Origin: a virus
IMG/VR virus record: IMGVR_UViG_3300045988_102880
Coordinates: 1-45,006 of that record
DNA: 45,006 bases
Direction: 5' to 3' (one strand)
Below, in pieces: positions 5,036 to 28,789 of this stretch. Every line of letters starts with the position of its first letter. Within the stretch, counting starts at the first letter, position 1. Both the position numbers and the translations under genes were made by a program. The notes under the pieces were generated by a model. That model had not been told where the DNA came from. It did no database searches and saw only the letters and a list, made by a program, of their open reading frames with translations.

Positions 5036-5038
5036 GGT

Positions 5039-5686: not shown

Positions 5687-5715
5687 CTGTTTTACCTCCT
5701 CTCTTGTTGGTTACC

Positions 5716-5743: not shown

Positions 5744-5778
5744 TTTAGTAAAAATATGTTAAAAAAGGATGACTTCAT

Positions 5779-6291: not shown

Positions 6292-6433
6292 GAAAATCCC
6301 GTATGTCTTTCCTCTCTCCCTTGCTGCGGCACTTTCTCAGACGTATTGTCTCGTCAAACATAGCCTGGTAAAGAACCGCAACGATTTTTTCTTTGCTTGT
6401 CTCCGTGAACACAGGCTCGTCAAGCCGATTCAT
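6188..6433 (-). CDS. Hypothetical early protein, 81 aa
   Basis: GGAGTAGGAGGTGAGAAC precedes the ATG. Its last ~104 nt overlap the convergent gene 5779-6291, so the C-terminus may be read-through into an inserted moron. Confidence 0.5.
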   Translation of the reverse strand: MNRLDEPVFTETSKEKIVAVLYQAMFDETIRLRKCRSKGERKDIRDFLTSACQICIHPNPGNEDPDIFRENMLQLRQETSK

Positions 6434-6503
6434 GTTCTCACCTCCTACTCCTTCAAAAAATGCTCAATACTTACTCCGAAGTAATCTTCCAGCTCTTTCA
6501 TTA

Positions 6504-6677
6504 TTACTTCTTTAATTCAAAGCCGACTGAATCTACCGTAACATTCAGTGTCACAGTGAACTCTGCAGGACATCCTGCAGAGTTTTTCAACTCGTAGTCC
6601 TTCACATTCCGAATCTCGCAACCGTCTAAAAAAACCTTTCCATCCGGTGTAATCTTCAATTTTTGAAAATCTTCCAT
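6504..6677 (-). CDS. Hypothetical early protein, 57 aa (not in the ORF track)
   Basis: GGAGGTGAGAAGAG precedes the ATG. Translation is MEDFQKLKITPDGKVFLDGCEIRNVKDYELKNSAGCPAEFTVTLNVTVDSVGFELKK. Preferred over listed ORF 6517..6762, which overlaps the cro-like gene and lacks an RBS. Confidence 0.5.
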   Translation of the reverse strand: MEDFQKLKITPDGKVFLDGCEIRNVKDYELKNSAGCPAEFTVTLNVTVDSVGFELKK

Positions 6678-6698
6678 CTCTTCTCACCTCCATTCTGA

Positions 6699-6717
6699 AA
6701 TTCAATTTAATTGGATT
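6699..6717. promoter_or_regulatory. Operator-like 19-mer AATTCAATTTAATTGGATT (distal copy)
   Basis: 18/19 identical to the copy at 6946-6964. It spans the stop codon of the cro-like gene. Confidence 0.45.
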
Positions 6718-6910
6718 TATCGGGCACAAAAATAAAGTCCATAGGGATGCCGGAAAGCTCACTCATCTTTCTAAGCTGAGATACCGTTGGTTCGGTATTT
6801 CCTTTTTCCCAATTAACAACGGTTTTGTTGGAAACCCCTATTTTTTCAGCCCATTCTTTCTGGTTACATCGTGCATTTACACGTACCGCTTCCAAACAAA
6901 TCTGTGGCAT
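6707..6910 (-). CDS. Cro-like XRE-family HTH regulator
   Basis: RCNQKEWAEKIGVSNKTVVNWEKGNTEPTVSQLRKMSELSGIPMDFIF is a classic XRE HTH. The gene is divergent from the repressor gene. Confidence 0.8.
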   Translation of the reverse strand: MPQICLEAVRVNARCNQKEWAEKIGVSNKTVVNWEKGNTEPTVSQLRKMSELSGIPMDFIFVPDKSN

Positions 6911-6940
6911 TTCTTATCTCCTTTCTCAATTTCTGACTTT

Positions 6941-6969
6941 ATTATAATTCAATATAATTGGATTGTCAA
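6941..6969 (-). promoter_or_regulatory. Consensus sigma-A-type early promoter TTGACA-17-TATAAT (minus strand)
   Basis: Reverse complement of 6964-6969 is TTGACA and of 6941-6946 is TATAAT, with a 17-nt spacer. It sits about 30 nt upstream of the cro-like start. Confidence 0.7.
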
Positions 6970-6994
6970 CACTAAAATTCAAAAATATTGGATT
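6946..6994. promoter_or_regulatory. Two operator-like 19-mers (AATTCAA-N5-TTGGATT imperfect palindromes)
   Basis: 6946-6964 is AATTCAATATAATTGGATT and 6976-6994 is AATTCAAAAATATTGGATT. An extra inverted half-site TTGAATT lies at 7000-7006. Confidence 0.55.
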
Positions 6995-6999
6995 TAATA

Positions 7000-7028
7000 T
7001 TGAATTTTTTTCAATTCTGATGTAGAAT
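7000..7028 (+). promoter_or_regulatory. Repressor-side promoter candidate TTGAAT-17-TAGAAT
   Basis: ttgaat at 7000-7005 and tagaat at 7023-7028. AAGGAGGA follows at 7039-7046, before the ATG at 7053. Confidence 0.55.
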
Positions 7029-7052
7029 ATTACATGTAAGGAGGAAAGTGCA

Positions 7053-7421
7053 ATGACAAATGAAGATCAGAAAAGGATCTTCTCAAAAAATCTTTGCAGG
7101 TATGTTGCCGCAAGCGGAAAGCAGCAAAAAGAAGTCGCCAAAGAACTTGGAATAAATGCAACCACATTTAATATGTGGTGCACAGGGAAAGCAATTCCAG
7201 GAACCGGAAAGTTAGGAACTCTGGCGAAATATTTCAGAATTGGTCTTTCAGATTTGGTTAATGAAAAAACCGAAAAGGAATTTAATGCGGAGTTTTCTGA
7301 TGTGGTAATGAAAATTGGTCTGACAGATAAAAGATTCATGAATATTATTCTTGAATATGACAAGCTACCGACTGATAAAAAAGATTTGTTATGTGATTTT
7401 CTTGAGAAGTTTGTTTTCTAA
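7053..7421 (+). CDS. CI-like XRE-family HTH repressor (no S24 peptidase domain)
   Basis: FSKNLCRYVAASGKQQKEVAKELGINATTFNMWCTGKAIP is an XRE-type HTH. The gene is divergent from the cro-like gene. Confidence 0.8.
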   Translation: MTNEDQKRIFSKNLCRYVAASGKQQKEVAKELGINATTFNMWCTGKAIPGTGKLGTLAKYFRIGLSDLVNEKTEKEFNAEFSDVVMKIGLTDKRFMNIILEYDKLPTDKKDLLCDFLEKFVF

Positions 7422-7428
7422 GGCACAT

Positions 7429-7451
7429 GGGCAGGAACTACTTTCCTGCCC
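7429..7451 (+). terminator. Hairpin terminator after the repressor gene
   Basis: gggcagga-actact-ttcctgccc followed by attcttcttt. Confidence 0.55.
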
Positions 7452-7554
7452 ATTCTTCTTTATACCCTCTTTTCACAAACCAATAAATAAGATTCAGTAT
7501 TTTTTCACTATTTATCTTCTGCACCATGTCAATGATTTCTTTCTTGTAGTCCAT
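7438..7554 (-). CDS. Possible micro-protein, 38 aa
   Basis: AGGAGGGAACAC precedes the ATG. Translation is MDYKKEIIDMVQKINSEKILNLIYWFVKRGYKEEWAGK. It is below the ORF-track size cut-off. Confidence 0.35.
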   Translation of the reverse strand: MDYKKEIIDMVQKINSEKILNLIYWFVKRGYKEEWAGK

Positions 7555-7670
7555 GTGTTCCCTCCTATCAAAAGTAGCAGATGTATATTGTTTTACTTAA
7601 TCTTTACTAAAATTATATTATGTGATATGCTAAATTATACCAAAAATTATATATCGAGGAGGTATGTGTT

Positions 7671-8327
7671 ATGGCACTTACAAATTGCCCGGAGTGTGGT
7701 AAGGAGATCTCCGATCAGGCAGACAAATGCCCGAATTGCGGGGCACCTACACGCAAAGAAGCGGAGGAAAAGAGCACTAAAAAGAAGACACGTGGTTGTC
7801 TAGGCACTGTTCTTATAGTGTTTGCACTGCTTATTTTGATTGGAGCGTTTGGATCTATGCTGTCGTCTGACGATAAGCCCACAAAAGTAGACAGCGGAGA
7901 TTCAGCGGAAGCCACAGAAGAGGAAAAGACAGAATTTGCAGTCGGGGAAACAGCAAGTCTGAATGATGTGGAAGTTACGCTTGTATCAGCAGAGGAATCT
8001 AACGGTACGCAATTTCTGGCACCAGAAGCTGGCAACATTTATATCAATCTGTCATTCGAGATTACCAACAATTCAGACAGGGATATCACAGTCAGCTCCA
8101 TGCTCAACTTCGAAGCATACTGCGATGATTATTCTGTAAATCAGAGTATTTCTGGAGCAGCATCCAATAGTAACGGAAAAGTTACACTTGATGGAAATGT
8201 TGCATCCGGGAAGAAAATGAACGGGATCATAACTTATGAAGTTCCTGAAGATTACCAGAGATTGGAAGTATCATTCACACCGGATTTCTGGAAGAGCAAA
8301 GATATCAAATTTGTAGTCACGAAATAA
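7671..8327 (+). CDS. Zinc-ribbon / TM / DUF4352-type exported protein (prophage accessory)
   Basis: CPECGKEISDQADKCPNCG, then TM LGTVLIVFALLILIGAFG, then a DUF4352-like beta domain (VEVTLVSAEE..IYINLSFEITNNSDRDITV..GIITYEVPED). Confidence 0.7.
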   Translation: MALTNCPECGKEISDQADKCPNCGAPTRKEAEEKSTKKKTRGCLGTVLIVFALLILIGAFGSMLSSDDKPTKVDSGDSAEATEEEKTEFAVGETASLNDVEVTLVSAEESNGTQFLAPEAGNIYINLSFEITNNSDRDITVSSMLNFEAYCDDYSVNQSISGAASNSNGKVTLDGNVASGKKMNGIITYEVPEDYQRLEVSFTPDFWKSKDIKFVVTK

Positions 8328-8356: not shown

Positions 8357-8494
8357 CGACTGCACACCAAGGTGCAGTGTATTACCTACACCCATATATT
8401 ACCACCTGGAATGCAGTCACGCAAGAGATAATGTCAAGAATTGTCGAAAAAAGTCGGCTGTATTTTTTATGCCCAAAAACAGGAGGTAAACGGG

Positions 8495-9628
8495 ATGGCA
8501 AAGAAAAAATATACAATGGGAGCAGATGGATATTACCGGACGAAGGTATGGGACGGAACCTACAACAAAGACGGCACGAAGCACCGGCAGAACCTGTGCA
8601 GTAAGAAGTCCAGCAAGGATCTGGAGAATCAGGTGGAAGCATTCAAGAAGCAAGTGGAAGAATCGCTGCGGAAAGGACAGATAGCTACACAGGCAAGTGA
8701 TATGTCCGTGTACGAATACGCACAGCAATGGAAGAAAACCTTTAAGCAGACAAGGGAAGCGAACACACAAGCTATGTATGAGAATATCATCGAGAAGAAG
8801 ATCGTTGCCCTGTCTGGAGTAAAACTGTCGGAAGTATCCCGTATCCACTTCCAGCAACTGATAAATAATAATGCGGATCACCCGCGCACCTGCCAGCAGA
8901 TCCAAGTCACATTTAAGCAGATCATAAAGAGTGCGATCTGGGACTCTCGCTTGCCTGCAGAAGCCTATGACCGTATCTGTTCGGAGATTTCTGCACCGGA
9001 ATATAAAGCACCGAAGAAGCGGCCGCTGACAGCTCTGGAGAAGGAAGCAATCAAAAAGGCAGACTTCACGGACCGGGAACGCTGCTACGTGTATCTGATC
9101 TACGGTCTGGGACTGCGCCGAGAGGAGGCTCTGGCACTCTGCCGGACAGACATCAACTTGCAGACCCGGAAAATCCGGGTGCATACGGCAGTCACCTTTG
9201 TCAGAAATGATCCGATTGAGAAGGGTCCGAAGTCGGATAACGGATACCGTGAGATCCCAATGCCAGATTTCCTCTGCCAGTTTCTGAGCGAGTACCTACA
9301 CGGTAAGAACGGATATCTGATCCAGAAGGTTCGGGGCGGTGGCAAGCTGACAAAATCATCATTCCGGCGCATGTGGGATTCTATCCGGGACAAAATCAAC
9401 ATTGCCGCTGGTGGAAATTCGGTGGTTGATATGGTTCCAGGTCTGACCTCTCATGTGTTCCGGCACAACTTCTGCACGGAGCTGTGCTACCAGGTCCCGA
9501 AGATCTCCATCAAAAAGATAGCGGAGATCATGGGAGACACGGAGAAGATGGTTATGGACGTGTACAGTCACATCCAGGAAGACAAAGAAAAGACCGCTGA
9601 AGCCGTGGAATCTGCCATTGGATTTTAG
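8495..9628 (+). CDS. int: Tyrosine integrase
   Basis: AGGAGGTAAACGGG precedes the ATG. N-terminal arm-binding-like YYRTKVWDGTYNKDGTKHRQ. Catalytic signature LGLRREE...SHVFRHNFCT...MVMDVYSH. Confidence 0.9.
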   Translation: MAKKKYTMGADGYYRTKVWDGTYNKDGTKHRQNLCSKKSSKDLENQVEAFKKQVEESLRKGQIATQASDMSVYEYAQQWKKTFKQTREANTQAMYENIIEKKIVALSGVKLSEVSRIHFQQLINNNADHPRTCQQIQVTFKQIIKSAIWDSRLPAEAYDRICSEISAPEYKAPKKRPLTALEKEAIKKADFTDRERCYVYLIYGLGLRREEALALCRTDINLQTRKIRVHTAVTFVRNDPIEKGPKSDNGYREIPMPDFLCQFLSEYLHGKNGYLIQKVRGGGKLTKSSFRRMWDSIRDKINIAAGGNSVVDMVPGLTSHVFRHNFCTELCYQVPKISIKKIAEIMGDTEKMVMDVYSHIQEDKEKTAEAVESAIGF

Positions 9629-9674
9629 GACAAAATCTGGACATTCGGGTTAAAAAGGACACGATCAGGACATC
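9627..9674 (+). repeat. Arm-type integrase-site candidates, P arm (two dimers of AGGACA)
   Basis: AGGACAaaatctGGACAT at 9627-9644 and AGGACAcgatcAGGACAT at 9656-9673. Confidence 0.45.
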
Positions 9675-9767
9675 TACTTTCGCTTATTTTGTGTTACTTA
9701 AAGCACTTTCAAAATTGTAATTTCAGGGATTTTCAAGACGCGAAAAACGTTTAGAATACAAGAAAAA

Positions 9768-9803
9768 ACCGCCATTCAGAGGTTTTCTGAGTGACGGTTT
9801 TTT
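9768..9803 (+). terminator. Rho-independent terminator downstream of int
   Basis: 13-bp stem accgccattcaga / tctgagtgacggt (one mismatch, one wobble) followed by TTTTTT. Confidence 0.75.
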
Positions 9804-9806
9804 GTG

Positions 9807-9857
9807 TGAGGCATCGGGGATTCGAACCCCGGACAACTTGATTAAAAGTCAAGTGCT
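9807..9857 (-). other. attP core: 3' half of a tRNA-Lys(UUU) gene (anticodon arm, T arm, acceptor 3' strand)
   Basis: Minus strand reads cttga-cTTTTaa-tcaag gttgtc cgggg-ttcgaat-ccccg atgcctc a. There is no D arm or 5' acceptor strand upstream. Confidence 0.75.
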
Positions 9858-9904
9858 TAAAACACCATTTTCGTCCGAAATATCAACGTTTTTGACGATT
9901 GGCG

Positions 9905-9923
9905 AGGACAAAATAAGGACATC
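9905..9923 (+). repeat. Arm-type integrase-site candidate, P' arm
   Basis: AGGACAaaataAGGACATc, same orientation and about 11-nt spacing as the two P-arm dimers. Confidence 0.45.
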
Positions 9924-10012
9924 TCAAATCTTTAATGTTTGTGATTATATCGCATTATAGATGATATGTCAATCAGAGTTTATTCCCTATTGTAATGACC
10001 TGCACCATAAAA

Positions 10013-10726
10013 TTATGCCTGCACAACTACTGCGTCAAAGCCTGCTTTCTTCAGTTTGTCAGCCTGTGCCTGTGCATTTTCTTTTTTGCTGTACGCACCT
10101 ACTTGAACACGGTACAGAGCTTTTCTGTCACCCGTGGAAGTTTCCTCGCCCTGTTCTGCTTTATCCGTTTCCGGTGTAATCTGCACGCGCTCTCCGGTGA
10201 TTCCATACACGATAGCATCAGCCATCTCCTCATAGGAATACAGCTGCACATCATCCTTGTCGTCCACAAAGCAGCACTCCAACAGCAGTGCCGGTGCCTT
10301 ACTTTTTTTAAGCACATACAGTTTCTGACTGATCTTCACACCACGATTTTTAAAGCCAAGATTGCTGATTGCCTGGCAGATCTTCTCAGCAAACGCTTTT
10401 GCCTTACTTGTCGCAGAATAAACATAGCACTCTACACCAGTGGTCTTACCGTTTCCACCTTTATCGCCTGCTCCAGAGTTGAAGTGAATGGAAACATCCA
10501 GATCTACTGCATGGGCATTGCATTTCGCAATGATCTTTTTCAGCACATCGACCTGCCCTGTACCGTTATCGACCGTGCAATCATAAACGATGTGACCAAG
10601 CTGCCGAAGCTTACTGATCACCTCATCTTTTACTCGTCTGGCCTCGGTTGACTCATTGATAAGACCTACTGCTCCGCAAGCTACCTTTCCAGCCGGATTA
10701 TGTCCAGCATGTACATTGATTCTCAT
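10013..10726 (-). CDS. Endolysin: N-acetylmuramoyl-L-alanine amidase (Amidase_3-like) with a C-terminal SPOR domain
   Basis: MRINVHAGHNPAGKVACGA...DLDVSIHFNSG...LLLECCFVDDKDD, then RVQVGAYSKKENAQAQADKLKKAGFDAVVV. Confidence 0.85.
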   Translation of the reverse strand: MRINVHAGHNPAGKVACGAVGLINESTEARRVKDEVISKLRQLGHIVYDCTVDNGTGQVDVLKKIIAKCNAHAVDLDVSIHFNSGAGDKGGNGKTTGVECYVYSATSKAKAFAEKICQAISNLGFKNRGVKISQKLYVLKKSKAPALLLECCFVDDKDDVQLYSYEEMADAIVYGITGERVQITPETDKAEQGEETSTGDRKALYRVQVGAYSKKENAQAQADKLKKAGFDAVVVQA

Positions 10727-11420: not shown

Positions 11421-12347
11421 TCAAGCGATAATGAAGCCGGGGGCTACGCCATAGGAGGCGGCTGCGCCACCGCCATCTCTGCTGGTATAGCCGTCTCTGC
11501 TGACAAGGCAGAAGTTGGTGTCGTTAAAGGCATACGGGGATGCCAACCACCAGTTCACACGAGAACCACTTGCTGCAGCTCCTTTCCCAAGCCCTTTGAC
11601 GATATGACGGTATGAATGGGCAAAAATCGGAAGCTGGATGCCTCCGCCATCAAAACCATCAGACCAGTTATTTCTGCCAAAAACTTCTGTTTCCTGAAGT
11701 AGCCACAGTTTTCTAGATGCCCATGCCCAGCCGCTTTTGTTATTATCCATTCTCCGAACTTCTTTCATTACTGATTTGAGATCAGCAGGCAAGGTGTTGT
11801 AAATGGTTGTATTGACCGTTTTTGCCAAAGCCGAAGAAGCGTATCCTCCGGTGTTGGTGTGGCTGGAGTTCATCTGATACGTTGTCTTCAGACAATCTCG
11901 GAACGTAAAATACAAATGCGGATCAGTTAGAATGTCTGAATCACCTACATTCATGTAGGTATTAAATCCTGAAAGATCCACCCGTACATCTTCACCGGTT
12001 GAAAGAACAATGTCCTTGTAATCTCCGATATGTAACCCGGAGAAATCCTCTGTCTTAATCTTGGCAGATAATTCAGCCCACGACATTGTGATCTCTTTTC
12101 CGTAGCTGTAAGTAGCTGCTCCAAGTAGAGGACCATTGATATTCTCATTTAGTTCACTAAATCCATTTGCGACTCGATTCTCAAAATCGTTCATATTTTC
12201 TGCAGAAAAAGCGTCACCTTCTTCCGAAATCATTCCTTCAGATCTGGCAACAGTCACCAACTCAGATGTTCCATCTGTTTTTGTGAGTGATCTTCGTGTT
12301 GGAAATTCGCTGATACGGTCTTTCCAAATTTTTTTAATAAATCCCAT
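11421..12347 (-). CDS. Tail fibre / receptor-binding protein candidate
   Basis: Last gene of the tail module, 308 aa, followed by a long imperfect hairpin at 11384-11420. Confidence 0.55.
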   Translation of the reverse strand: MGFIKKIWKDRISEFPTRRSLTKTDGTSELVTVARSEGMISEEGDAFSAENMNDFENRVANGFSELNENINGPLLGAATYSYGKEITMSWAELSAKIKTEDFSGLHIGDYKDIVLSTGEDVRVDLSGFNTYMNVGDSDILTDPHLYFTFRDCLKTTYQMNSSHTNTGGYASSALAKTVNTTIYNTLPADLKSVMKEVRRMDNNKSGWAWASRKLWLLQETEVFGRNNWSDGFDGGGIQLPIFAHSYRHIVKGLGKGAAASGSRVNWWLASPYAFNDTNFCLVSRDGYTSRDGGGAAASYGVAPGFIIA

Positions 12348-12356
12348 GTCTTCCTC

Positions 12357-12824
12357 CTATAATAAAAATCCAAATTCGTCACCAGCATATATTTCAGATC
12401 CGGCATAATAATGGAAGTTATTTAATAATATTTGATAAATATCATCCAATATCTTTTCAATATTATTAACTTTCTGATAATCATTAACCGGTTTTTCTGG
12501 TACTGCAGGTGTGTCGGGATGGTATGCTCCTGCGTCTCTTATTGCCTTGACATTACTTAATAGATTCGCAAAATATGATTCATTAACCAACTCCGGTATT
12601 CCATCTGCATAAGTGTCAAGTGACAGCTCTAATACATCGCTTAAAAGCTGAATGTTGTTCTCGATTCTCAGCAAATCCGATTCGTTAAGAGATCCCTTCA
12701 TACCTGCAAGCCACTCTGCCTTTTGTTCGTCCGTAAGGCTGTTCCAACCAGTTTGATTATAGAGCACAGCTTTGTCCACATCAGTCTGAGTCCGATCTGT
12801 CACTGCTTCTTGCCACAGATTCAC
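12357..12824 (-). CDS. Tail-tip accessory protein, 155 aa (GTG start)
   Basis: GGAGGGATACC precedes the GTG. C-terminus HYYAGSEIYAGDEFGFLL shares a motif with the end of the 577-aa tail protein. Confidence 0.55.
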   Translation of the reverse strand: MNLWQEAVTDRTQTDVDKAVLYNQTGWNSLTDEQKAEWLAGMKGSLNESDLLRIENNIQLLSDVLELSLDTYADGIPELVNESYFANLLSNVKAIRDAGAYHPDTPAVPEKPVNDYQKVNNIEKILDDIYQILLNNFHYYAGSEIYAGDEFGFLL

Positions 12825-12939
12825 GGTATCCCTCCACTTCTTCTTCCAACTCCATATTTTTCTTTTTTAATTCCTCGTTTTCCTGCTGCAACTTTTTGAC
12901 AATTGCAGTCCAATATGGATTGATCGGGTCAAGATTCAT
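12781..12939 (-). CDS. Possible coiled-coil micro-protein, 52 aa
   Basis: ATGA overlap with the stop of the 577-aa gene. Translation begins MNLDPINPYWTAIVKKLQQENEELKKKNMELEEEVEGY. The 3' end overlaps the next gene. Confidence 0.35.
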   Translation of the reverse strand: MNLDPINPYWTAIVKKLQQENEELKKKNMELEEEVEGYRESVARSSDRSDSD

Positions 12940-14669
12940 AGCAAAAAATCACCTCCAGCATACAGTTCCGATCCTGTATAGTAAAATGTTGTAACAACGG
13001 TATTATATCCTCTGCATGTAGCAATTCCAATAAATCCTCCAGTCAAGTCGATATCCTGGGATTCCAATAATGTAGTAGACACCATTCCTTTTGTGTCTTT
13101 TACATTAAGCCAATTCCCGACCTTTTCAGTATCCACAAAAAATTGCATTTCTAACTTCTTGCGAAGCTGTAAATAGGATAAAAGAGATTCTAGTTTTTCG
13201 GTAATCTGATCAGAATTGTAAAGAGTAATTGTCCCATACTCTTTTATATTCTCTGTTTCTCCGCCCTTTACAACGTTAGACAACATTTTTTTAAATGTGT
13301 TTTTTTCATACTGTTTCCCAGTAATCGTACATTTACCGGCTGCATCCATATTGATAACAGCGTAATTATGTTTCGCCTCACGCAAAGATCCACCTGATAC
13401 GGAGACAGTCGCCGGATCACACGGAGAGGAAAATTCAACTGTGGATACTCCCGCTGGCAGATCATCGTCATAAAGGTTCTGCGCATCGCTTTGAAGTAGG
13501 TATGTTGCGCTTTCTATTGAGACACCACTGACATAATCATCAAGCTCTATTGATGTTGTACCATATATTTTTCTGTCAGGACCAACTTCTTCTGTTACAT
13601 ATCGTGTAGGCTTATAAACCCTTATAGTGTCAGATCGGCTGTCGTCCGCAAGTGCACTAATAGCAAAGCATACCATTTTCAAAGCTTCTCTGCAGGTTTG
13701 GATTTCCAAATGGCCAGACAGCAATATATCATATAAGTCAGAGTCGATCTCATATTTATCAATTCCTGCTGCAACAAATATGGACTCCATTATTTTCCCA
13801 GCTTTTGCATTTTTATACACTTCTCCATTTCTAAATATGTATCTGTCCATTTTACCAACAGAATCTATCAGCGAAAAAGTCGCTATGTTATCGCTAAATT
13901 TTTGCTCATCAATATAATACGTTCCCATTTCGATTTCTTTGCCGTCTTTAGTCTGTGTCAACCAGATTGGTTGATCTCGCTGTACACTTTTCCACGATCC
14001 TTCTGCATTAGCTATGTCAAAATCATACCGTTCATCGTGTATACTTATTTCTGCCGTGTTTATTGCAAGCGTATCAGATGTCTCGTCCACTTCTTCATGT
14101 ACACTGGCAGACATTATAAGTGCATCTGTCCATTCCAGATATTCACCATACAAAATATACTGTAATTTTATATAGCGATCCGGCAATTTAGTTTTTACAA
14201 ACTTAATTATAATTTTTCCGTAATTTTCAACTTGCTTTTTGCAAAAATATATTAAACTATCTGGGCAAAAGGTCTTATTTGTAATTTTTATTCCTGCAAG
14301 ATCATACCATGTTATATCGATTTCCTCTGGATACTCATCAGAAAAATATAAAGTTATACCTGCAGACGAATGGTTTTTTGTAAATGTTACCGTTATTACT
14401 GGTACATTCAAAAAGGCGCAATCGTCTCCAGATTTTTCCGAACTCCAAAATGCAACATTTTCCGGTACATCCGGCATGATTTCTTTTTCTCCATTTAAGA
14501 CAAATTGGTTCTTCTCGATGGTTCCCCAATCTGGAATAGAGATAAAATCATCTTTTTCAAATGGTTCCAGCGATCCTATTTCCTGTTTTCCAGAGATGGC
14601 AAGGTTTGCATCTGCTATTGCCGTAACATCTGAAAACCTCATTCTTGCAAAGCAACTTGTTTTTGCCAT
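12936..14669 (-). CDS. Tail-tip / baseplate minor structural protein, 577 aa
   Basis: Large ORF two genes after the tape measure gene, placed by position in an A118/SPP1-like tail module. Confidence 0.6.
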   Translation of the reverse strand: MAKTSCFARMRFSDVTAIADANLAISGKQEIGSLEPFEKDDFISIPDWGTIEKNQFVLNGEKEIMPDVPENVAFWSSEKSGDDCAFLNVPVITVTFTKNHSSAGITLYFSDEYPEEIDITWYDLAGIKITNKTFCPDSLIYFCKKQVENYGKIIIKFVKTKLPDRYIKLQYILYGEYLEWTDALIMSASVHEEVDETSDTLAINTAEISIHDERYDFDIANAEGSWKSVQRDQPIWLTQTKDGKEIEMGTYYIDEQKFSDNIATFSLIDSVGKMDRYIFRNGEVYKNAKAGKIMESIFVAAGIDKYEIDSDLYDILLSGHLEIQTCREALKMVCFAISALADDSRSDTIRVYKPTRYVTEEVGPDRKIYGTTSIELDDYVSGVSIESATYLLQSDAQNLYDDDLPAGVSTVEFSSPCDPATVSVSGGSLREAKHNYAVINMDAAGKCTITGKQYEKNTFKKMLSNVVKGGETENIKEYGTITLYNSDQITEKLESLLSYLQLRKKLEMQFFVDTEKVGNWLNVKDTKGMVSTTLLESQDIDLTGGFIGIATCRGYNTVVTTFYYTGSELYAGGDFLL

Positions 14670-14678
14670 TCTTGCCTC

Positions 14679-15083
14679 CTATGGTTTCTTGTATGGTTTC
14701 TTGCTTGTCATCTTCCATGTAAGGCTCTTAAATTCTGCCCCTGACTCAAATACTTTTTCGATTTCATCCGCGATACTGGAAAAATATCCATAAAAAGAGA
14801 AGTTTCCATTTGCATCTGGAAGAGTGACTTCGTGGAACCGGTTGTCTACATCTGTGATATGCTCAAATAGCTTGTCATAGGTTGCCTTATCATTTATCGT
14901 TCCAATGGATATTGTATAATTTTTATAAACTCCGATTGTCTCGATATGGACATCTCCGTCTTCTGTTCTGTTTGCGTACTTTTCCAAAAAGTCAGCGGTT
15001 CTTTTAATCGACACTAACGGGATGTTATAATTCACCCCGTCAATGACAAGCCCCCTTGTATATTTTTGCTCCATAAAATTCAC
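14679..15083 (-). CDS. Short distal-tail-like protein, 134 aa
   Basis: Immediately downstream of the tape measure gene (adjacent coordinates). Confidence 0.45.
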   Translation of the reverse strand: MNFMEQKYTRGLVIDGVNYNIPLVSIKRTADFLEKYANRTEDGDVHIETIGVYKNYTISIGTINDKATYDKLFEHITDVDNRFHEVTLPDANGNFSFYGYFSSIADEIEKVFESGAEFKSLTWKMTSKKPYKKP

Positions 15084-24432: not shown

Positions 24433-24808
24433 AACATCCTCCTAAACGTGATTATTAACCGCCCGTCAGCGGTATGGATTCAGCCGGATAAACCACCGGC
24501 GGGGTAATCGGAACACCCGGGATCGAACCGGAACAAAGGGCGCGACCCTTCACATCTGCCATTGATGATATGTTCCATATGCTGTCTTTCCAGCCGTCAG
24601 CCCGGACACCAGGCACAATGCGCATGTCGGACATTGCATCCGCTTTTCAACCTCCCGGTTTGGCCGTGTTGCCGGAGGTTAGCAACACCCGGTTTCTATT
24701 AAGGACATGCGCGCCATTCAACAAGTTACCAAAAGGAAAGAAGGTGCATATGGTTTCACCACACATTCATCATATCTTGTATACTGCTGTCTCCTGTCAC
24801 CACATCAT
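24433..24808 (-). ncRNA. Candidate structured RNA / structured leader (pseudoknot domain plus tRNA-like cloverleaf)
   Basis: 376 nt with no ORF of 60 codons or more, about 56% G+C by hand count over 24461-24720. A 9-bp closing stem (24620-24628 / 24704-24712) encloses an H-type pseudoknot (24666-72/24682-88 and 24649-55/24674-80). A cloverleaf lies at 24508-24577. Confidence 0.45.
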
Positions 24809-25237
24809 TTACGCATCTGCCAACATGCGGATCCGGTTCATAATTTCCCGCTTTTCCTCCTGGAAGTCAGAATCCATAATCATTGCAGACAAAAGATCGT
24901 ACATCTCAACCATCAGCCGTCCAACAGCTTCCATCAACTTGTCCTTATGGCCCTGATCTCCGGTCTTCTTGTAATCCTGTTTAGCCGCAAGATATACATC
25001 GTATAACGCATCTATGTTATGGTCATATCTGCCGTTGGAATACTTCTTGATAAGCCCTTCCGCAACCTCAGACACGGTTTCTTTACTCACGTATGAGCCG
25101 GATTCCATGCATTTAAGGTTGTTAATCACACTCGTCAGCTTAAAGATCGTATCCAAATTATTCGCCGTCAGCTTTTCTTCCGCATTTTTCTTTTCGATTT
25201 CAAGCTGTTTTTCCATTACTTCAATCAGTTTATGCAT
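24809..25237 (-). CDS. Hypothetical helical protein, 142 aa
   Basis: Same-strand ORF overlapping the upstream gene by 8 nt. Confidence 0.55.
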   Translation of the reverse strand: MHKLIEVMEKQLEIEKKNAEEKLTANNLDTIFKLTSVINNLKCMESGSYVSKETVSEVAEGLIKKYSNGRYDHNIDALYDVYLAAKQDYKKTGDQGHKDKLMEAVGRLMVEMYDLLSAMIMDSDFQEEKREIMNRIRMLADA

Positions 25238-25826
25238 ACTTTTCCACCTCTTTCAGCTTATCCCGGTATTTATCGTGGATATCTTTCTGACTCTCGACAA
25301 TATAAGTCATGTCGTACCCTGTGGATATCAGGTCAACCATGATTCGCTCCAAGCATTTCAGCTCTTTGTCCACATCTTCCACCAGTTCATCCACATAGAT
25401 AGCATCTGCGATCATGCCGCCGGTCCGTAACTCGGTCGCGTACTTTTCATACAATTCTTTTGTCGTGGACTCCCATTCTCGATACTGCAGGAATCCATCT
25501 TCAACCGCTTTCTGCTTCGTGGACTTGCCAACACTCATTCTATTTGCAGTCTTCCATCCATCCGGAATCATCTGAACGACTCCGTCATAGCGATCCGGGA
25601 TGATCTGGTTATGGTGGTTGATATAATACCGGTTGAGACATCTGCGCTCTTTGCCTTCGTCAAAATACTGGTATTCGTGGATCCGCTTATATCCTCGGAA
25701 TCCAAGAAAATCAAAGTAATCTGCCATCTGAGAATGGAACATAAGCGCAGCTATCATTCTTGCATTGATCTCCGCAAAGATATCTTCTGTACTGTGCACG
25801 TCTGTCTTGCTTTTAAAGGTAATCAA
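25230..25826 (-). CDS. Ferritin-like four-helix-bundle protein (ferroxidase ligands apparently not conserved)
   Basis: FAEINARMIAALMFHSQMADYFDFLGFRGYKRIHEYQYFDEGKERRCLNRYYINHHNQIIP aligns by eye with the ferritin helix A-B region (LNEQMNLELY..YQQMS.W....F.G.A.FL..HA.EE..H...L..YL). The E / ExxH positions differ. Confidence 0.45.
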   Translation of the reverse strand: MITFKSKTDVHSTEDIFAEINARMIAALMFHSQMADYFDFLGFRGYKRIHEYQYFDEGKERRCLNRYYINHHNQIIPDRYDGVVQMIPDGWKTANRMSVGKSTKQKAVEDGFLQYREWESTTKELYEKYATELRTGGMIADAIYVDELVEDVDKELKCLERIMVDLISTGYDMTYIVESQKDIHDKYRDKLKEVEKYA

Positions 25827-25841
25827 TCAGATCACCCCCTG

Positions 25842-26270
25842 TCATGACAGCTTTTTGATAATCAGATTTGCATCTTTAACAAGTACAGCTCCTGAGGAAA
25901 TGTTGCCAACAGATACAATCAAGGATGTTCCAGCCGGAACCGGAATCAGCGCAGATGCTCCGACATTCTGGAACACTCCTGCAGTAACCACTGTATAGTC
26001 CATTTCTGTTCCGCCGATTGCTTCGCCGTTAATCTCCATTGTCAAGACAGTTTCTCCAGCCGCTGAAGCTGTAATATTGCTATTAAACTGTACCTCAACC
26101 GCCATCGGCTGATTTGTACGGTTTGTAAGGGTAAACTGTCCGCTTCCCTCAATATGATTAAGCCATCCGCTGGCGCATCCGCATCTGCGTGATCTGACTC
26201 TTGTGCTGGTAAAAATTACATTCTGCCCTGCGCTGATTTGCTGCGCGTCTTTCGCGATTACATTTAACAT
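25842..26270 (-). CDS. Beta-rich protein resembling the C1q/TNF-like C-terminal domain of BclA exosporium proteins
   Basis: AAAGGAGACAAGAAT precedes the ATG. ..GQFTLTNRTNQPMAVEVQFNSNI..VLTMEINGEAIGGTEM..GTSLIVSVGNISSGAVLVKDANLIIKKL has a strand pattern like the BclA C-terminal domain. Confidence 0.4.
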   Translation of the reverse strand: MLNVIAKDAQQISAGQNVIFTSTRVRSRRCGCASGWLNHIEGSGQFTLTNRTNQPMAVEVQFNSNITASAAGETVLTMEINGEAIGGTEMDYTVVTAGVFQNVGASALIPVPAGTSLIVSVGNISSGAVLVKDANLIIKKLS

Positions 26271-26331
26271 ATTCTTGTCTCCTTTCAAAAAACAAAGAGG
26301 GCAAGCAATGCCTACCCTCTTCTGTGCACGA

Positions 26332-26541
26332 CTACTCAGTAGCCTTGGATTCTTCCAACATGCTGATTATCTTCTTTTGATTTTCCAGTATCCGCTCTAG
26401 ATACTTTTTGTCCTGCTCTTGCAAATGTCTTGCGAGATCTGCGTTGCTTTCTTGCGACAGGTCGCTCTGGTAATTGAGTGCCTGAAGAAAAACTCCGAGC
26501 AGGTTTAAAAGATCCAGAGCAGTCAGCTCCTTGTTGTTCAC
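26332..26541 (-). CDS. Hypothetical helical protein, 69 aa
   Basis: Overlaps the upstream stop by 4 nt (translational coupling). Confidence 0.5.
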   Translation of the reverse strand: MNNKELTALDLLNLLGVFLQALNYQSDLSQESNADLARHLQEQDKKYLERILENQKKIISMLEESKATE

Positions 26542-27230
26542 AGCACGTTACCACTGCCGCAGCACCCGCCCCCGTAAAAAGAACCGGTGTTGTACGCAAA
26601 GTACGGGCTGCAAGTCAGATACGCCGGTGTCGGTGTCGGTCTGATTGCATCAACAATGTTCTTGGTCTGGTTGACCTGGGAAATCTGCCAGTATGCAGTC
26701 TGGAGATCTCTGTCTCTGTCTGCCAGCTTGTCGCGGAGTCCCTGAATGGTATTATCCTGCATAAGCTGTCTGGTAGCCTGTCCGTCAGCCAGAATGCTCT
26801 CTTTGATATCACAGCAACACTGTGCCATCTGCGCCTGGATGTTCTGCGCCATTAACGCAGAATCATACCGGCTCTGCAGGATTTCCTTCTGTGTTTCGCA
26901 ACAACACTGCTGGGACTGTGCTCCCAACTGCTGCATTCCGAGCTGGTTAGTGTACCGGTTTTCCAGCACATCCCTCTGGGTCTGACATGCTGTGTTGGAT
27001 ACATTCTGATTGGTATTAAAGATATCGCGCTTTACAAACTCATCAGAGATAAAGTTATCATGCACGCCCGTCTCAACACCGCCGCGGTTCCATCCGCCCA
27101 TCATCGGGAAGATGAATGCAAGCAGGATAATCCAGATCCACCAGCCACCGCCGCCCCACATGCCATCATTGTCATTTCTTGTAACTGCTGCCACATCCGC
27201 AGCCGTTAAGCCCATGCCATCGTTTGTCAT
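26538..27230 (-). CDS. Membrane-anchored Cys-cluster repeat protein, 230 aa
   Basis: TM stretch GGGGWWIWIILLAFIFPMMGGW. Three ~29-aa repeats: ACQTQRDVLENRYTN.., CCCETQKEILQSRYDS.., CCCDIKESILADGQAT... C-terminus PAYLTCSPYF..GGGCCGSGNVL. Confidence 0.6.
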   Translation of the reverse strand: MTNDGMGLTAADVAAVTRNDNDGMWGGGGWWIWIILLAFIFPMMGGWNRGGVETGVHDNFISDEFVKRDIFNTNQNVSNTACQTQRDVLENRYTNQLGMQQLGAQSQQCCCETQKEILQSRYDSALMAQNIQAQMAQCCCDIKESILADGQATRQLMQDNTIQGLRDKLADRDRDLQTAYWQISQVNQTKNIVDAIRPTPTPAYLTCSPYFAYNTGSFYGGGCCGSGNVL

Positions 27231-27284
27231 GTTGGTTGTCTCCTTATCATATATTTATCAAGCCGTTGCGCACCGGCGAGATAG

Positions 27285-27542
27285 CTATTTAATCATTTTT
27301 GCAATTTGCCCAAGATCCATTCCGTTCTGTCGGCACATCTGCTCAAATACCTGTTGTGGATTTTTTCCCTGGCACATATCCATTGCCTTTTTTATGTTCG
27401 GATTCTGCTGTGCCAATATGTCCATTGCAGCATGCGGATTCTCAAACTGTTTAATCTGGTTTACCACCTGCATAGCTTGTGATATAGCAGACATAGGGTT
27501 GTTTCCACCTGCGTTACCCATCATACCCATTAAAGGATTCAT
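27285..27542 (-). CDS. Small helical protein with NP-motif repeats, 85 aa
   Basis: MNPLMGMMGNAGGNNP..FENPHAAMDILAQQNPNIKKAMDMCQGKNPQQVFEQM. 4-nt overlap with the upstream gene. Confidence 0.55.
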   Translation of the reverse strand: MNPLMGMMGNAGGNNPMSAISQAMQVVNQIKQFENPHAAMDILAQQNPNIKKAMDMCQGKNPQQVFEQMCRQNGMDLGQIAKMIK

Positions 27543-27970
27543 AAGGTTTCCTCCTTCTTCTCCTGCGCCGGTTCACCCAATTTTGTGAGTAACGCATTAA
27601 ATTCCTCGCGGGTCACATAATCATTGCTTTTCTGAGGTGCTGTGGGCGCGTCAAGTGGAATTTCATGGAACTGAAATGCCTTAAAAGTAGCACTTCCCAT
27701 GTTATCCACGGTTTTTACATAAAAAATAGGAGAGTTATTGTCCATCATCCATGCAATGTTTCCAGGCTGTACAATCTGGTTCTTTGCCCCATCAACTCCG
27801 GCCACATAAATCCAGTTGACATTCTGTGTAGGTATCGCCGGTTGTGCTGGCATTTGATTCGGGTACTGCATCTGCTGCCTTTGCTGTTCCATCTGTTGGA
27901 TACGTTGCTGGATTTCCAACTGATCCGGTGTCATCATGTTCATTCCGTACACTGGCGGCATATATCCCAT
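27539..27970 (-). CDS. Gln-rich N-terminus / beta-rich C-terminus protein, 143 aa
   Basis: GGGAGGGATAGCT precedes the ATG. QLEIQQRIQQMEQQRQQMQYPNQMPAQP, then NVNWIYVAGVDGAKNQIVQPGNIAWMMDNNSPIFYVKTVDNMG. Confidence 0.55.
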   Translation of the reverse strand: MGYMPPVYGMNMMTPDQLEIQQRIQQMEQQRQQMQYPNQMPAQPAIPTQNVNWIYVAGVDGAKNQIVQPGNIAWMMDNNSPIFYVKTVDNMGSATFKAFQFHEIPLDAPTAPQKSNDYVTREEFNALLTKLGEPAQEKKEETL

Positions 27971-27993
27971 AGCTATCCCTCCCATGCCTTCAA

Positions 27994-28012
27994 ATCATCC
28001 AAAACGGATGAT
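27994..28012. promoter_or_regulatory. Inverted repeat atcatcc-N5-ggatgat upstream of the seven-gene cassette
   Basis: 7-bp arms, 24 nt upstream of the start codon at 27970 and just downstream of the terminator. Confidence 0.35.
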
Positions 28013-28057: not shown

Positions 28058-28092
28058 TAAAAAAGGAGCCTTGATAGTATCATCAAAGGCTC
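28058..28092 (-). terminator. Rho-independent terminator inside the head-gene block
   Basis: Minus strand reads gagcctttgatg-atac-tatcaaggctc (one bulge) followed by cTTTTTTat. It lies 10 nt after the HTH gene stop. Confidence 0.7.
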
Positions 28093-28101: not shown

Positions 28102-28302
28102 TCAACACACTTTTATAATCTTTCTGTTTACTCTACAGCTCAACCGCTTAATAGTTGCACTGCTCATATTCATGATTTCCGCACACTGCATCAACGGTAC
28201 ACCCTGCGCCCGATATTCAAACAATGTTCGCTCCTCTGGTGTAAAGTTTGCCATCCGCCGAAAGCGGTCAAGTTCCGGCACCGTAAAATCATAAATTTTC
28301 AA
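28102..28302 (-). CDS. Small sigma-70 region-4 / LuxR-type HTH protein, 66 aa (TTG start)
   Basis: FTPEERTLFEYRAQGVPLMQCAEIMNMSSATIKRLSCRVNRKI; AGAGGG lies 6 nt before the TTG. Confidence 0.6.
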   Translation of the reverse strand: MKIYDFTVPELDRFRRMANFTPEERTLFEYRAQGVPLMQCAEIMNMSSATIKRLSCRVNRKIIKVC

Positions 28303-28313: not shown

Positions 28314-28646
28314 TTATTTGTCTGTCAATGCATGAATCAGATCGTCCCTCGTTTTTTTTAGACCCTCGACATTGTTCCCGGTAATTTTGTTCTCGATCAG
28401 ATCAAACATACTACGCATTAACAGACTCATATCATTCCTGTTCTGGTTGATATCCTTGTAGTCCTGATTTAGCTTAGATTTGATATCTTTGATATCGGAC
28501 TCAATCGTATCCAGCCTACACTTAATGTCCGTCTGTGGTTTCTTTGCTCCGGCATAAATCTTATAGATCACACCGCCAGCAGCTCCGATCACGGTAACTG
28601 CTCCGCAAATCTGCAAAAGAGCCTGTCCAAATTCCATATAATTCAT
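28314..28646 (-). CDS. N-terminally anchored coiled-coil membrane protein, 110 aa (BhlA/UviB-like architecture)
   Basis: TM stretch ALLQICGAVTVIGAAGGVIYKIY followed by coiled coil. ATGA overlap with the upstream micro-ORF. Confidence 0.55.
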   Translation of the reverse strand: MNYMEFGQALLQICGAVTVIGAAGGVIYKIYAGAKKPQTDIKCRLDTIESDIKDIKSKLNQDYKDINQNRNDMSLLMRSMFDLIENKITGNNVEGLKKTRDDLIHALTDK

Positions 28647-28789
28647 TCGTTTTTCACCTCTGATTCATAATGATCGCACTTTTTACAGTCTTCTCTATCA
28701 GGGAACCCAAGTATATAATCGCTCTTTTCGCATACGCATATGTCCTCGCATAAATGTATGCAACGTTTCTCTTTCGGTTTATCATCCAT
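28643..28789 (-). CDS. Cys-rich micro-protein, 48 aa (not in the ORF track)
   Basis: MDDKPKEKRCIHLCEDICVCEKSDYILGFPDREDCKKCDHYESEVKNE. TAATG overlap with the minor capsid stop and ATGA overlap with the next start. Confidence 0.5.
   Translation of the reverse strand: MDDKPKEKRCIHLCEDICVCEKSDYILGFPDREDCKKCDHYESEVKNE

Follow-up and report, generated by a model that had tools for sequence, protein, structure and literature searches.

Why does a phage carry seven genes between its minor-capsid and scaffold genes, and what could such a block encode? The window (the whole 45,006-nt stretch analysed, from the IMG/VR virus record IMGVR_UViG_3300045988_102880) contains at this site seven packed minus-strand ORFs, denoted A to G (24809-27985). 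All are present as originally predicted, along with the quoted sequence features: QQRIQQMEQQRQQMQ in A, four NP motifs in B and three repeats opened by C or CCC in C (Table 1). Because each of the seven has conserved counterparts in more than 70 other contigs, these are real genes and not chance ORFs; the probable start of A is the ATG behind the RBS GGGAGGG. The upstream flank, previously labelled Mu-F-like, is Phage_min_cap2 (Pfam PF06152, 9e-73) and the downstream flank is Phage_scaffold (PF06810). Three further small genes, coding for 48, 110 and 66 aa, lie between the minor-capsid gene and terminator T1. The GC content of the block is host-like.

Table 1. Features of the locus, in order of decreasing coordinate
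Feature	Coordinates	Strand	Remarks
s110	28314..28646	-	110 aa, N-terminal transmembrane helix then coiled coil
sig66	28102..28302	-	66 aa stand-alone HTH, sigma-70 region 4 / LuxR-GerE type
Terminator T1	28058..28092	-	GAGCCTTTGATGATACTATCAAGGCTC then T7
Inverted repeat ATCATCC-GTTTT-GGATGAT	27994..28012	.	just upstream of gene A RBS
A, maximal ORF	27539-27985	-	from ORF list
Gene A	27539..27970	-	143 aa from ATG 27970 (probable start)
Gene B	27285..27542	-	85 aa
Gene C	26538..27230	-	230 aa
Gene D	26332..26541	-	69 aa
Terminator T2, internal	26294..26322	-	13-bp stem and T-run
Gene E	25842..26270	-	142 aa, ATG behind AGGAG
Gene F	25230..25826	-	198 aa, TTG start behind GGGGGTGA
Gene G	24809..25237	-	142 aa
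RAGATH-21 RNA	24619..24713	-	Rfam RF03097, 77.8 bits vs gathering score 70.3

The minor-capsid and scaffold genes were thought to be normally adjacent, and in relatives lacking the cassette the gap between them is indeed only 132-786 bp (L152, L153, L160, L162 and L165-L173, with minor-capsid proteins 54-65% identical). In the window, the block together with the HTH gene sig66, and probably s110, has been inserted between the two. The site is, as suspected, an accessory-gene hot spot with variable content; immediately upstream of gene A is a variable slot, which in L350 holds a Tad2-like anti-Thoeris gene. The families co-occur. In about 75 close relatives, s110, sig66 and A-G follow each other in constant order, with the TerL and MCP types swapped. 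A core order, running HTH, A, B, C, the protein at the E position and then the G-like one, is found in 29 distant genome loci and 160 further IMG/VR loci. Of the seven families, six are present in the Clostridium perfringens phages vB_CpeS-17DYC and HMD-PC1, which have a further protein where G would be. The A-B-C-E-G-like order is kept in more than 250 loci, at different genome positions and across C subfamilies that are only about 25-40% identical. The members of the conserved core are a small HTH protein, A, B, C, E or another small beta-rich protein in its place, and a G-like helical protein. In other lineages a Cys-His-Asp protein or an HExxH protein is added; family f6 has an invariant D-C...H...D.

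Other phages have the module at four different places in the genome. It occupies the early region of the C. perfringens phages, between the antirepressor and the Gam/RecT/ThyX/SSB genes, precedes the terminase and portal genes in L074, and follows the endolysin at the prophage end, next to host ThiC or AlaRS, in L086, L100 and L084; in 55 of the 160 IMG/VR loci, less than 1.5 kb of contig remains after it. The hosts include Megasphaera, with the module in prophages. The cassette is dispensable, given the existence of three deletion derivatives (L071, L134 and L143). Because it is absent from relatives, recurrently deleted, bracketed by terminators and variable in position, the block is a self-contained accessory module and not core morphogenesis, as the original prediction had it: a mobile, dispensable accessory operon that hundreds of phages of gut Firmicutes carry and that corresponds to no described system.

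The unit does not consist of exactly seven genes, as first delimited: the HTH gene also belongs to it, s110 probably does too, and D and F are optional. One or two copies of sig66, or the HTH-like f10/f27, are located directly upstream of the module in most loci, and sig66, which shows weak Pfam matches (Sigma70_r4_2, 1.2e-3; GerE, 2.6e-3) and matches the phrog_1190 sigma factor (2.7e-4), is a candidate regulator of the module. s110, which probably travels with the module, accompanies the cassette in all close relatives and is retained alone in L160/L162; f11 and f16, of s110-like architecture, lie upstream of the module in distant loci. s110 has no Pfam family and matches only phrog_1009, the function of which is unannotated, and in Pfam and PHROG searches neither s110 nor its analogues matched holin, XhlA or BhlA families. 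The hairpin and T-run of T1, reported previously, also occur in L011, L015 and L018, where the stem sequences differ (compensatory changes); this intrinsic terminator closes the upstream head-gene transcript. T2, a strong intrinsic terminator directly upstream of the gene E RBS that is likewise kept with compensatory stem changes (L004, L007, L015 and L016), divides the cassette into A-D and E-G. The inverted repeat ATCATCCGTTTTGGATGAT is also present as described, is seen in the nearest relatives L002/L003 only, and is a possible operator or 5' hairpin.

Profile and fold searches assigned identities to E and F, whereas A, B, D and G showed no match to anything known. In protein A, a Q/M/P-rich N-terminus and a helix precede a conserved alpha/beta core of about 50 aa, and another helix forms the C-terminus; the protein matches phrog_21718, none of its 327 homologues is named, and the core, modelled by AF2 with pLDDT about 88, gave no significant fold match in a structure search. 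The f3 and f13 proteins of distant loci are A-like (hhalign 97.8% and 90%). Protein B is helical and M/Q/N-rich, with no family in any library searched; its own family is present in 88 loci, and f12 is B-like at an hhalign probability of 77%. The optional D, a hydrophobic N-terminal helix followed by a coiled coil, has its family in 78 loci, is placed after E in L074-L077 and the C. perfringens phages, and is absent from many variants. G is a helical acidic protein that matches phrog_28802 and aligns with f5 over the N-terminal 41 residues (hhalign 94%); the G-like proteins of other lineages have Tyr/Gly/Arg/Asp-rich tails.

C is the anchor of the module and the most conserved protein of the region, with 83-90% identity compared with 56-64% for the portal and minor-capsid proteins. 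Its family (901 clusters at 50% identity, median of 8 Cys) has no Pfam counterpart. In gene C, an acidic N-tail and one Gly/Trp-flanked transmembrane helix are followed by a long helical region, in which a CCC motif is invariant; P-x-P-A-Y is conserved as well, and CGC/CC is found at the C-terminus. The N-tail counts are 3.5 D/E vs 0.9 K/R and, going by these charge counts alone, the short N-tail probably faces out and the long helical domain faces the cytoplasm. Read by eye, the C-terminal tail type of C shows no visible correlation with the protein that follows at the E position. The CCC motif could bind metal, as an alternative to cross-linking; the cytoplasm of anaerobes keeps cysteines reduced, so that cross-linking of C would need release or an oxidant.

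The C1q/BclA-C-like assignment of E is borne out by the BclA_C model PF18573, which some close homologues pass, and by Foldseek. The fold is a BclA-C / ExsF / C1q-TNF-like jelly roll, modelled by AF2 with moderate confidence (pLDDT 76.8) and matching PDB structures at a TM score of about 0.6, with sequence identity of only 13-22%. The matches include the F-BclA CTD (9h38, 4.5e-6, TM score 0.64), BclA, BxpB/ExsF, C1q, TNF-like lectins, ExsF bound to an anchor peptide (9h3d, from the entry title), phage tail-fibre tips and PRD1 P5; in BFVD, the matches are stand-alone phage proteins (TM score 0.75-0.80). E has no collagen-like stalk or repeats and no signal peptide, and is a small, probably trimeric beta protein.

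The ferritin-like assignment of F likewise stands, with the family profile giving E = 1.1e-5 against PDB ferritins (0.025 when restricted to close relatives), although there is no Pfam ferritin match. The match is to prokaryotic ferritins, covers helices A-B and part of C, and falls at equivalent positions; several carboxylates are conserved (E19, D/E56-E/D57-x-x-E/H60, E119 and E155). F is a helical protein of the ferritin superfamily, an optional member of the module that comes and goes and occurs in C. perfringens phages too. F also departs from ferritins. In the window its ferroxidase ligands are altered (Glu17 to Arg, Glu49 to Ala or Asp, His53 to Glu), with equivalents of the canonical Glu17 and His53 missing; helices B and C are separated by a long insertion; and the gene belongs to a phage operon, not to an iron-storage setting.

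What such a set of proteins makes can be proposed only tentatively. With a probability of about 0.4, and by analogy, the product is a fibre or coat that is anchored in the membrane, can be cross-linked and is assembled in infected or induced cells. C would enter the host cytoplasmic membrane via its single transmembrane helix, its helical domain might oligomerize as a coiled-coil stalk, and the invariant CCC and C-terminal CGC/CC might lock or cross-link this stalk; E, a trimer-type jelly roll, would dock on the stalk or cap it, as in exosporium naps and endospore appendages. A and B, rich in Gln, Met, Asn and Pro, and the G-like proteins with their tails could be matrix or adaptors, and F, along with the Cys-His-Asp protein where present, could supply redox, cross-linking or processing chemistry. 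The product would alter the cell envelope or released material, not the virion. The resemblance to the naps and appendages of the Bacillus cereus group (BclA, BxpB/ExsF, F-BclA/F-Anchor of F-ENA), in which an ExsF-type domain holds an anchor peptide, according to the title of 9h3d, extends to the jelly-roll fold, the Cys-rich partners and the lack of signal peptides; because the soluble members have none, assembly would take place in the cytoplasm, and the structure would become exposed only through lysis or a non-classical route. In contrast to the spore systems, the phage E lacks collagen-like repeats, the module has no ExsY/CotY, Ena (DUF3992) or other coat families, its anchor is a transmembrane protein of a family without a Pfam model, and the genes are carried by phages, among them lytic-type C. 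perfringens phages, where they lie in the early region, and Megasphaera prophages. Because Megasphaera, to our knowledge, does not sporulate, a strictly spore-related role is unlikely.

A rather unlikely alternative is a host-takeover, superinfection-exclusion or anti-defence complex, in which the membrane protein C and its partners block phage DNA entry or disable membrane-associated defence, with the HTH gene acting like an anti-defence-associated regulator. Such a role would fit the adjoining antirepressor in the C. perfringens phages, the prophage-end site, a classical moron position, the Tad2-like gene in the hot-spot slot, the small HTH upstream of the module in most loci and the dispensability of the block, and a conserved host target would fit the very strong conservation of C. 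However, known functions of this kind are mostly single small proteins, whereas an order held constant over five to seven genes, even where identity falls to about 25-30%, suggests a multi-subunit machine; PADLOC and Pfam gave no links, and the BclA-C-like trimer, the ferritin homologue and the Tyr/Gly-rich tails are without precedent there. That the block is a pile of unrelated morons with no common function, the random alternative named in the original prediction, is hardly credible: the hot spot and the coming and going of D and F would agree with it, but the synteny across divergent C subfamilies and differing genome positions contradicts it. The module does resemble morons and lysogenic-conversion cassettes in its presence/absence polymorphism among related phages, its own terminators and regulator, its dispensability and its placement at module boundaries and prophage ends, but morons usually comprise one or two genes of varying composition, not a block of five to seven in fixed order conserved far beyond one phage lineage.

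Improbable as well are virion accessory proteins. These could be head fibres or decoration, E forming trimers on the capsid, or could act inside the head or in ejection, C serving as a membrane-inserting pilot. The block is co-oriented within the head module in the window and about 100 relatives, next to minor-capsid (gp7-like) proteins that are head-internal, as is the SPP1 minor-capsid protein gp7; the proteins lack signal peptides, as virion proteins do, and tail-fibre tips and PRD1 P5 have E-like folds. Capsid decoration, one of the options initially considered, is weakened because the module is also found in the early region and, at prophage ends, after lysis genes, and elsewhere it lies upstream of terS; moreover, swaps of capsid and terminase type leave the block in place, related phages lack it or have lost it, terminators insulate it from the head genes, and no member matches a structural PHROG or Pfam family. 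With T4 Hoc/Soc, lambda gpD and phi29 gp8.5, it shares the location in the head module, in the window, and a small beta protein, but there is no homology, the position is not conserved, and a membrane protein and terminator insulation set the block apart. Slightly less probable still is late lysis-linked release, whereby the transmembrane/coiled-coil protein (s110, f11 or f16) and the HTH protein drive expression and a holin-type release, independent of signal peptides, of a lectin-like cargo made up of E and its partners. In the clostridial UviA/UviB/BCN5 and TcdR/TcdE/toxin loci, a sigma factor and a holin-like protein accompany signal-less cargo, and PBSX has XhlA-type lysis genes; the phage locus similarly combines a small transmembrane/coiled-coil protein directly upstream of the HTH gene and module, a sigma-region-4-type regulator and signal-less proteins, with holin (f18) and endolysin upstream in some loci and TNF-like lectins among the fold matches of E. 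Yet sig66 is a 66-aa region-4-like HTH and not a full, group-5 sigma factor, the module matches no BhlA, XhlA or holin model, s110 and its analogues included, and contains no toxin or bacteriocin domain, the C. perfringens phages have it without such a transmembrane/coiled-coil neighbour, and a pure cargo model leaves the membrane-anchored, most conserved C unexplained.

The spacer of 376 nt that separates G from the scaffold gene accommodates a RAGATH-21 RNA, which adjoins the module and is not necessarily part of it; its position is kept in L004.

The seven minus-strand open reading frames (A-G) described in the original prediction are present at the predicted positions, and the start-site details favor the predicted protein sizes: gene A starts at ATG 27970, preceded by the ribosome-binding site (RBS) GGGAGGG (143 aa), gene E at ATG 26270, preceded by AGGAG (142 aa), and gene F at a TTG codon preceded by GGGGGTGA. 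The window represents a temperate siphovirus-type genome with genes for TerS, TerL, portal, integrase and endolysin, and the block is located within its head module, flanked upstream by a Phage_min_cap2 gene (Pfam PF06152, 9e-73) and downstream by a Phage_scaffold gene (PF06810) that is followed by the major capsid gene. Three additional small genes, for proteins of 48, 110 (s110) and 66 (sig66) amino acids, lie between the minor-capsid gene and the predicted terminator T1, which is real. The 48-aa open reading frame is detected by tblastn in only L002, L003 and, weakly, L012 among 76 related viral loci. The sig66 protein contains only a region-4/LuxR-type HTH, not the regions 2 and 4 of a sigma-70 family member, and its HMM scores (18.9 and 17.8 bits) are below the respective gathering thresholds (25.7 and 23.5 bits).

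Features of the window, with positions in nucleotides
Feature	Position	Strand	Description
48-aa ORF	28643-28789	-	seven Cys; overlaps the minor-capsid gene stop codon
s110	28314-28646		110 aa; TM helix and coiled coil
sig66	28102-28302		66 aa; sigma-region-4/LuxR-type HTH
T1	28058-28092		terminator
Gene A	27539-27970	-	
Gene B	27285-27542	-	
Gene C	26538-27230	-	
Gene D	26332-26541	-	
T2	26294-26322		strong terminator between D and E, directly 5' of the E RBS
Gene E	25842-26270	-	
Gene F	25230-25826	-	
Gene G	24809-25237	-	
RAGATH-21 RNA (Rfam RF03097)	24619-24713	-	77.8 bits vs gathering score 70.3; model positions 1-76 of 76
Scaffold-gene 5' leader	24436-24506		
Low-GC stretches	5001-8000; 12001-15000		GC content 0.36-0.39 vs 0.42-0.50 elsewhere
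308-aa protein gene	11421-12347	-	downstream of tail genes
Endolysin gene	10013-10726	-	
tRNA call	9807-9866	-	Rfam, 36 bits; none by ARAGORN
Integrase gene	8441-9628	+	

Both T1 and the second terminator, T2, are retained in diverged relatives, with differing stem sequences, and therefore, the transcription units are A-B-C-D and E-F-G. No sequence upstream of A was convincing as a sigma-70 promoter, and by-eye inspection of the same region identified no sporulation-type (sigma-E/K-like) -10 elements conserved between relatives. A conserved T-run/TGC..AAAATAT motif downstream of T1 was considered as a shared promoter and discarded, as the window has a single copy of it on the relevant strand.

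The block is a dispensable insertion. With the minor-capsid protein as anchor, a scan retrieved 80 loci, among which L152, L153 and L165-L173 (minor-capsid identity of 54-65%) have a gap of only 132-617 bp between the minor-capsid and scaffold genes, and L160 and L162 have s110 alone in this position. In addition, three natural deletion derivatives of the cassette were detected: L071 (about 9600-10230) lacks A-D and half of E, whereas L134 (2328-2702) and L143 (10597-10824) retain a truncated A and no other gene of the block. The short gaps and the deletion derivatives, which lead to this conclusion, also bear out the claim that the cassette is wedged between the minor-capsid and scaffold genes. 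In L134 and L143, gene A is broken at the same point, after GEAGAKS, pointing to a deletion that recurred or was inherited.

Where present, the block is conserved as a unit. A scan with E yielded 76 viral loci, and s110, sig66 and A-G occur in the same order in about 70 of these, including loci with a different type of terminase and major capsid protein (major capsid identity of 28% vs 72%). In the largest group of close relatives, C is 86% identical to the window protein, compared with 64% for the portal, 56% for the minor-capsid protein and 55-58% for A, F and G; the block is better conserved than the surrounding capsid-assembly genes. A search with C led to 29 distant genome loci, in Coprococcus comes, Marvinbryantia, Waltera, Oscillospiraceae, Ruminococcus, Subdoligranulum, Colidextribacter and Megasphaera, along with a few metagenome-assembled genomes assigned to other phyla, probably through mis-binning. 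Comparison by iterated HMMs and hhalign reveals a single architecture across these distant loci, namely the HTH gene, A-like, B-like, C, a small beta-rich protein (E or one of the unrelated-looking families f7 and f19) and G-like. Two further single-protein scans with distant C proteins added 160 loci with the same core order. Lineage-specific additions include a 120-135-aa protein with an invariant Asp-Cys...His...Asp pattern, a DUF7841 protein and an HExxH protein, and the C. perfringens phages vB_CpeS-17DYC and HMD-PC1 encode A-like, B, C, f19, D, a 132-aa protein in the G position, and F. All scans together give >250 loci with the core order, which excludes the outcome that the original prediction had set against itself, that is, families that do not co-occur. 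These genes comprise one conserved, mobile, dispensable and separately terminated operon, in which the membrane protein is the most constrained part. It ranges over phages of Lachnospiraceae, Oscillospiraceae, C. perfringens and Megasphaera. Its carriers in culture are the lysogen Coprococcus comes MSK.16.63, with the prophage on NZ_JAAIMM010000013, and phages of C. perfringens.

The genomic position of the block varies. L074-L077 carry it upstream of terS, with HTH genes on one side and, on the other, those for the terminase, SPP1-type portal, scaffold and capsid; in L084, L086 and L100, it is found at the end of the prophage, past the genes for tail and endolysin, with ThiC and its TPP riboswitch, or an MBL-fold gene and AlaRS, as neighbors; and in C. 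perfringens phages, it occupies the early region, between the antirepressor and Gam/RecT/ThyX/SSB genes. The contig ends <1.5 kb past the last module gene in 55 of the 160 additional loci; it starts that close to the first gene in only 24. The slot between the HTH gene and A contains 0.1-2.3 kb of unrelated genes, with variants seen at L350 7182-7727, where it holds a Tad2-like gene (PF11195, anti-Thoeris), at L031 7904-8188 and at about 6000-7500 of L009, L012 and L072; other contents of this slot are a 94-aa protein that resembles deoxyribosyltransferases by eye only, or proteins starting with MGGRGGSSG. Small genes with a TM segment and a coiled coil, resembling s110, are often found directly 5' of the HTH gene and the module (L074 7238-7450, L089 1850-2287, L084 8399-8913 and others), as is f18, holin-like by eye only. 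None of these s110-like genes matched a holin or XhlA model; their likeness to XhlA/BhlA is one of architecture only. Essentially no plasmids carry the family (one match, in an 861-kb replicon), and no locus outside a phage context was seen among those examined.

The membrane protein C belongs to a large family, with 1582 homologs in a word-indexed search and 901 clusters at 50% identity in an exhaustive search, all of them stand-alone proteins of 170-290 aa, and none named; 76 diverse members scanned showed no domain fusions or Pfam links. The conserved N-terminal part consists of an acidic tail (A-D-x-x-A-V-T) and a single TM helix flanked by Gly and Trp, and is followed by an invariant CCC within QQCCCETQxAI, further helical blocks, P-x-P-A-Y and a C-terminal CGC or CC, with a family median of eight Cys. 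C is the only block protein with a hydrophobic segment, and no signal peptide was detected in the others.

The prediction of a C1q/BclA-C-like fold for E agrees with the AF2 model (pLDDT 76.8), in which Foldseek recognizes a C1q/TNF-like jelly roll, with probability 1.00 and TM scores of 0.55-0.64 to 9h38, 3tyj, 3twi, 2z5w, 8d02, 9h3d and C1q heads; the matches comprise the F-BclA tip domain, BclA, BxpB/ExsF, a cyanophage tail-fiber domain, Pgp3 and C1q. Stand-alone gut-phage proteins of 130-142 aa are closer still (TM 0.75-0.80). At the sequence level, E of the window has no match to the BclA C-terminal domain (PF18573) at E ≤ 0.1, and its profile reaches BclA in the PDB at E = 0.3-0.8 only; several homologs with 77-85% identity carry a precomputed PF18573 match, and one is named 'BclA C-terminal domain-containing' in UniRef. 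The BclA-type N-terminal anchoring peptide and collagen-like GXX repeats are absent from E, which has 142 aa and is a beta domain from the start. Short matches of the E profile to tau among PDB sequences are spurious.

The ferritin-like character proposed for F is substantiated once the C. perfringens members join the profile (E = 1.1e-5): a profile of nine family members matches >20 ferritin entries at E = 1e-5 to 5e-4 (query 11-94 to chain 6-85). Aligned to 5ls9 and 1s3q, the close family of the window protein has, as consensus, Arg, Ala and Glu at the ferroxidase positions Glu17, Glu49 and His53; the C. perfringens homolog keeps E-D-x-x-H, and E19, E119 and E155 are invariant in the F family. 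Judged by sequence, F is a ferritin homolog with an apparently altered set of metal ligands. Encapsulin-like loading of F into the capsid as cargo was rejected because, in C. perfringens phages, F is far from any capsid gene, and CotJ-like spore-coat homology because no CotJ or coat Pfam model matched. The model of A has a confidently predicted alpha/beta core of about 50 residues, for which Foldseek found no significant match (the best being SH2 or tailspike fragments, E = 0.2). Profile searches of A, C, G and the Cys-His-Asp protein (f6) against PDB sequences gave no match, and no relative of B, D or G has a known function; G-like proteins of other lineages carry Tyr/Gly/Arg/Asp-rich tails. 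Searches of Pfam, NCBIfam, PADLOC and PHROGs with A-G and the extra members retrieved only PHROGs of unknown function, DUF7841 and a weak Peptidase_M78 match, none of A-G matching a structural family in Pfam, PHROGs or NCBIfam.

The best, tentative reading of this anatomy (probability of about 0.4) is a kit for a cross-linkable fiber or coat that would be assembled in the cytoplasm and attached to the membrane. The parts are a membrane anchor (C) with a long, helical, Cys-studded domain, a putative trimer-type BclA/ExsF-like head (E), low-complexity partners rich in Gln/Met and in Tyr/Gly, and a ferritin-like protein, to which other lineages add an enzyme-like Cys-His-Asp protein. The main rival, a doubtful possibility, is a membrane-based exclusion, anti-defense or takeover complex, in line with the early-region and prophage-end positions and the anti-defense neighbor; a set order of several genes, and folds of this kind, argue against it. 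The Tad2-like gene is only a neighbor (in L350), and no PADLOC match to defense or anti-defense families within the block was better than E = 3.5e-3. More specifically, the fiber or coat might be a portable morphogenetic kit of gut Firmicutes phages for a membrane-anchored, Cys/Tyr/Gln cross-linked non-virion structure with BclA/ExsF-type heads that remodels the infected cell surface, spore or debris. This extension is unlikely as it stands; if true, phages would encode supramolecular assemblies of a new class, whose component families have no Pfam model or known function, and which would be analogous to, not homologous with, exosporium naps and endospore appendages.

A role in the virion is quite unlikely, given the terminator insulation, the lack of matches of A-G to known virion protein families, the absence of the block in relatives and its shifting position (early region, upstream of terS, or after endolysin at prophage ends). 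Still less probable is a lysis-linked release module, to which only a resemblance in gene order points. As in morons or lysogenic-conversion genes, the block is polymorphic in presence and absence, with conserved flanking and internal terminators, and it resembles moron cassettes in placement, but typical morons are much smaller and conserved far less widely; an assortment of unrelated morons without a common function is excluded.

The closest known systems, the exosporium nap and the endospore-appendage tip, are similar to the block in the fold of E, cysteine richness and presumed cytoplasmic assembly. However, the block lacks the collagen-like stalk, ExsY/CotY, the Ena families and the sporulation context, and some of the hosts are Megasphaera; it is not a member of this kind. 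Literature searches on RAGATH-21, 9H38 and BclA-like prophage modules returned nothing relevant, and no description of the block was found in the searched libraries, solved structures or literature; it is therefore rated as a system without a described counterpart, with a predicted function only. At 50% identity, the family of the anchor C alone comprises about 900 clusters, and it has no Pfam model, solved relative or name; together with its fixed partners, C makes up a conserved gene block that is among the more widespread in Firmicutes phages of the human gut. Better conservation than that of capsid-assembly genes, combined with dispensability, usually marks a function that counts in the ecology of the host and not in the test tube; exclusion, adhesion, and remodeling of the envelope or spore surface are examples. 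Its occurrence in a cultured lysogen and in cultured C. perfringens phages makes the block directly testable.

The spacer between G and the scaffold gene contains a full-length RAGATH-21 RNA scoring above the gathering threshold, found also at L004 11599-11684. In relatives, the same spacer harbors tRNA genes (L004, L079, L074) or GP20-b RNA (RF03003, L079), and thus, is a hot spot for small RNAs. The scaffold-gene 5' leader shares 94% identity with MT839484, a gut phage fragment that is otherwise unrelated, and 76-80% with others. No Rfam match was found in this leader or the 190 nt upstream of the scaffold gene, and a structured RNA in these 190 nt was dismissed, the folding energy being no better than that of shuffles (z = 0.33).

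Elsewhere in the window, the first low-GC stretch coincides with a switch to plus-strand genes near the integrase. The Rfam tRNA call is probably an attachment-site tRNA fragment because it adjoins the integrase and endolysin genes. The C-terminal region of the 308-aa protein matches a 'Hoc-like head decoration' PHROG (4.4e-7) and is probably an Ig-like domain on a tail or fiber protein.
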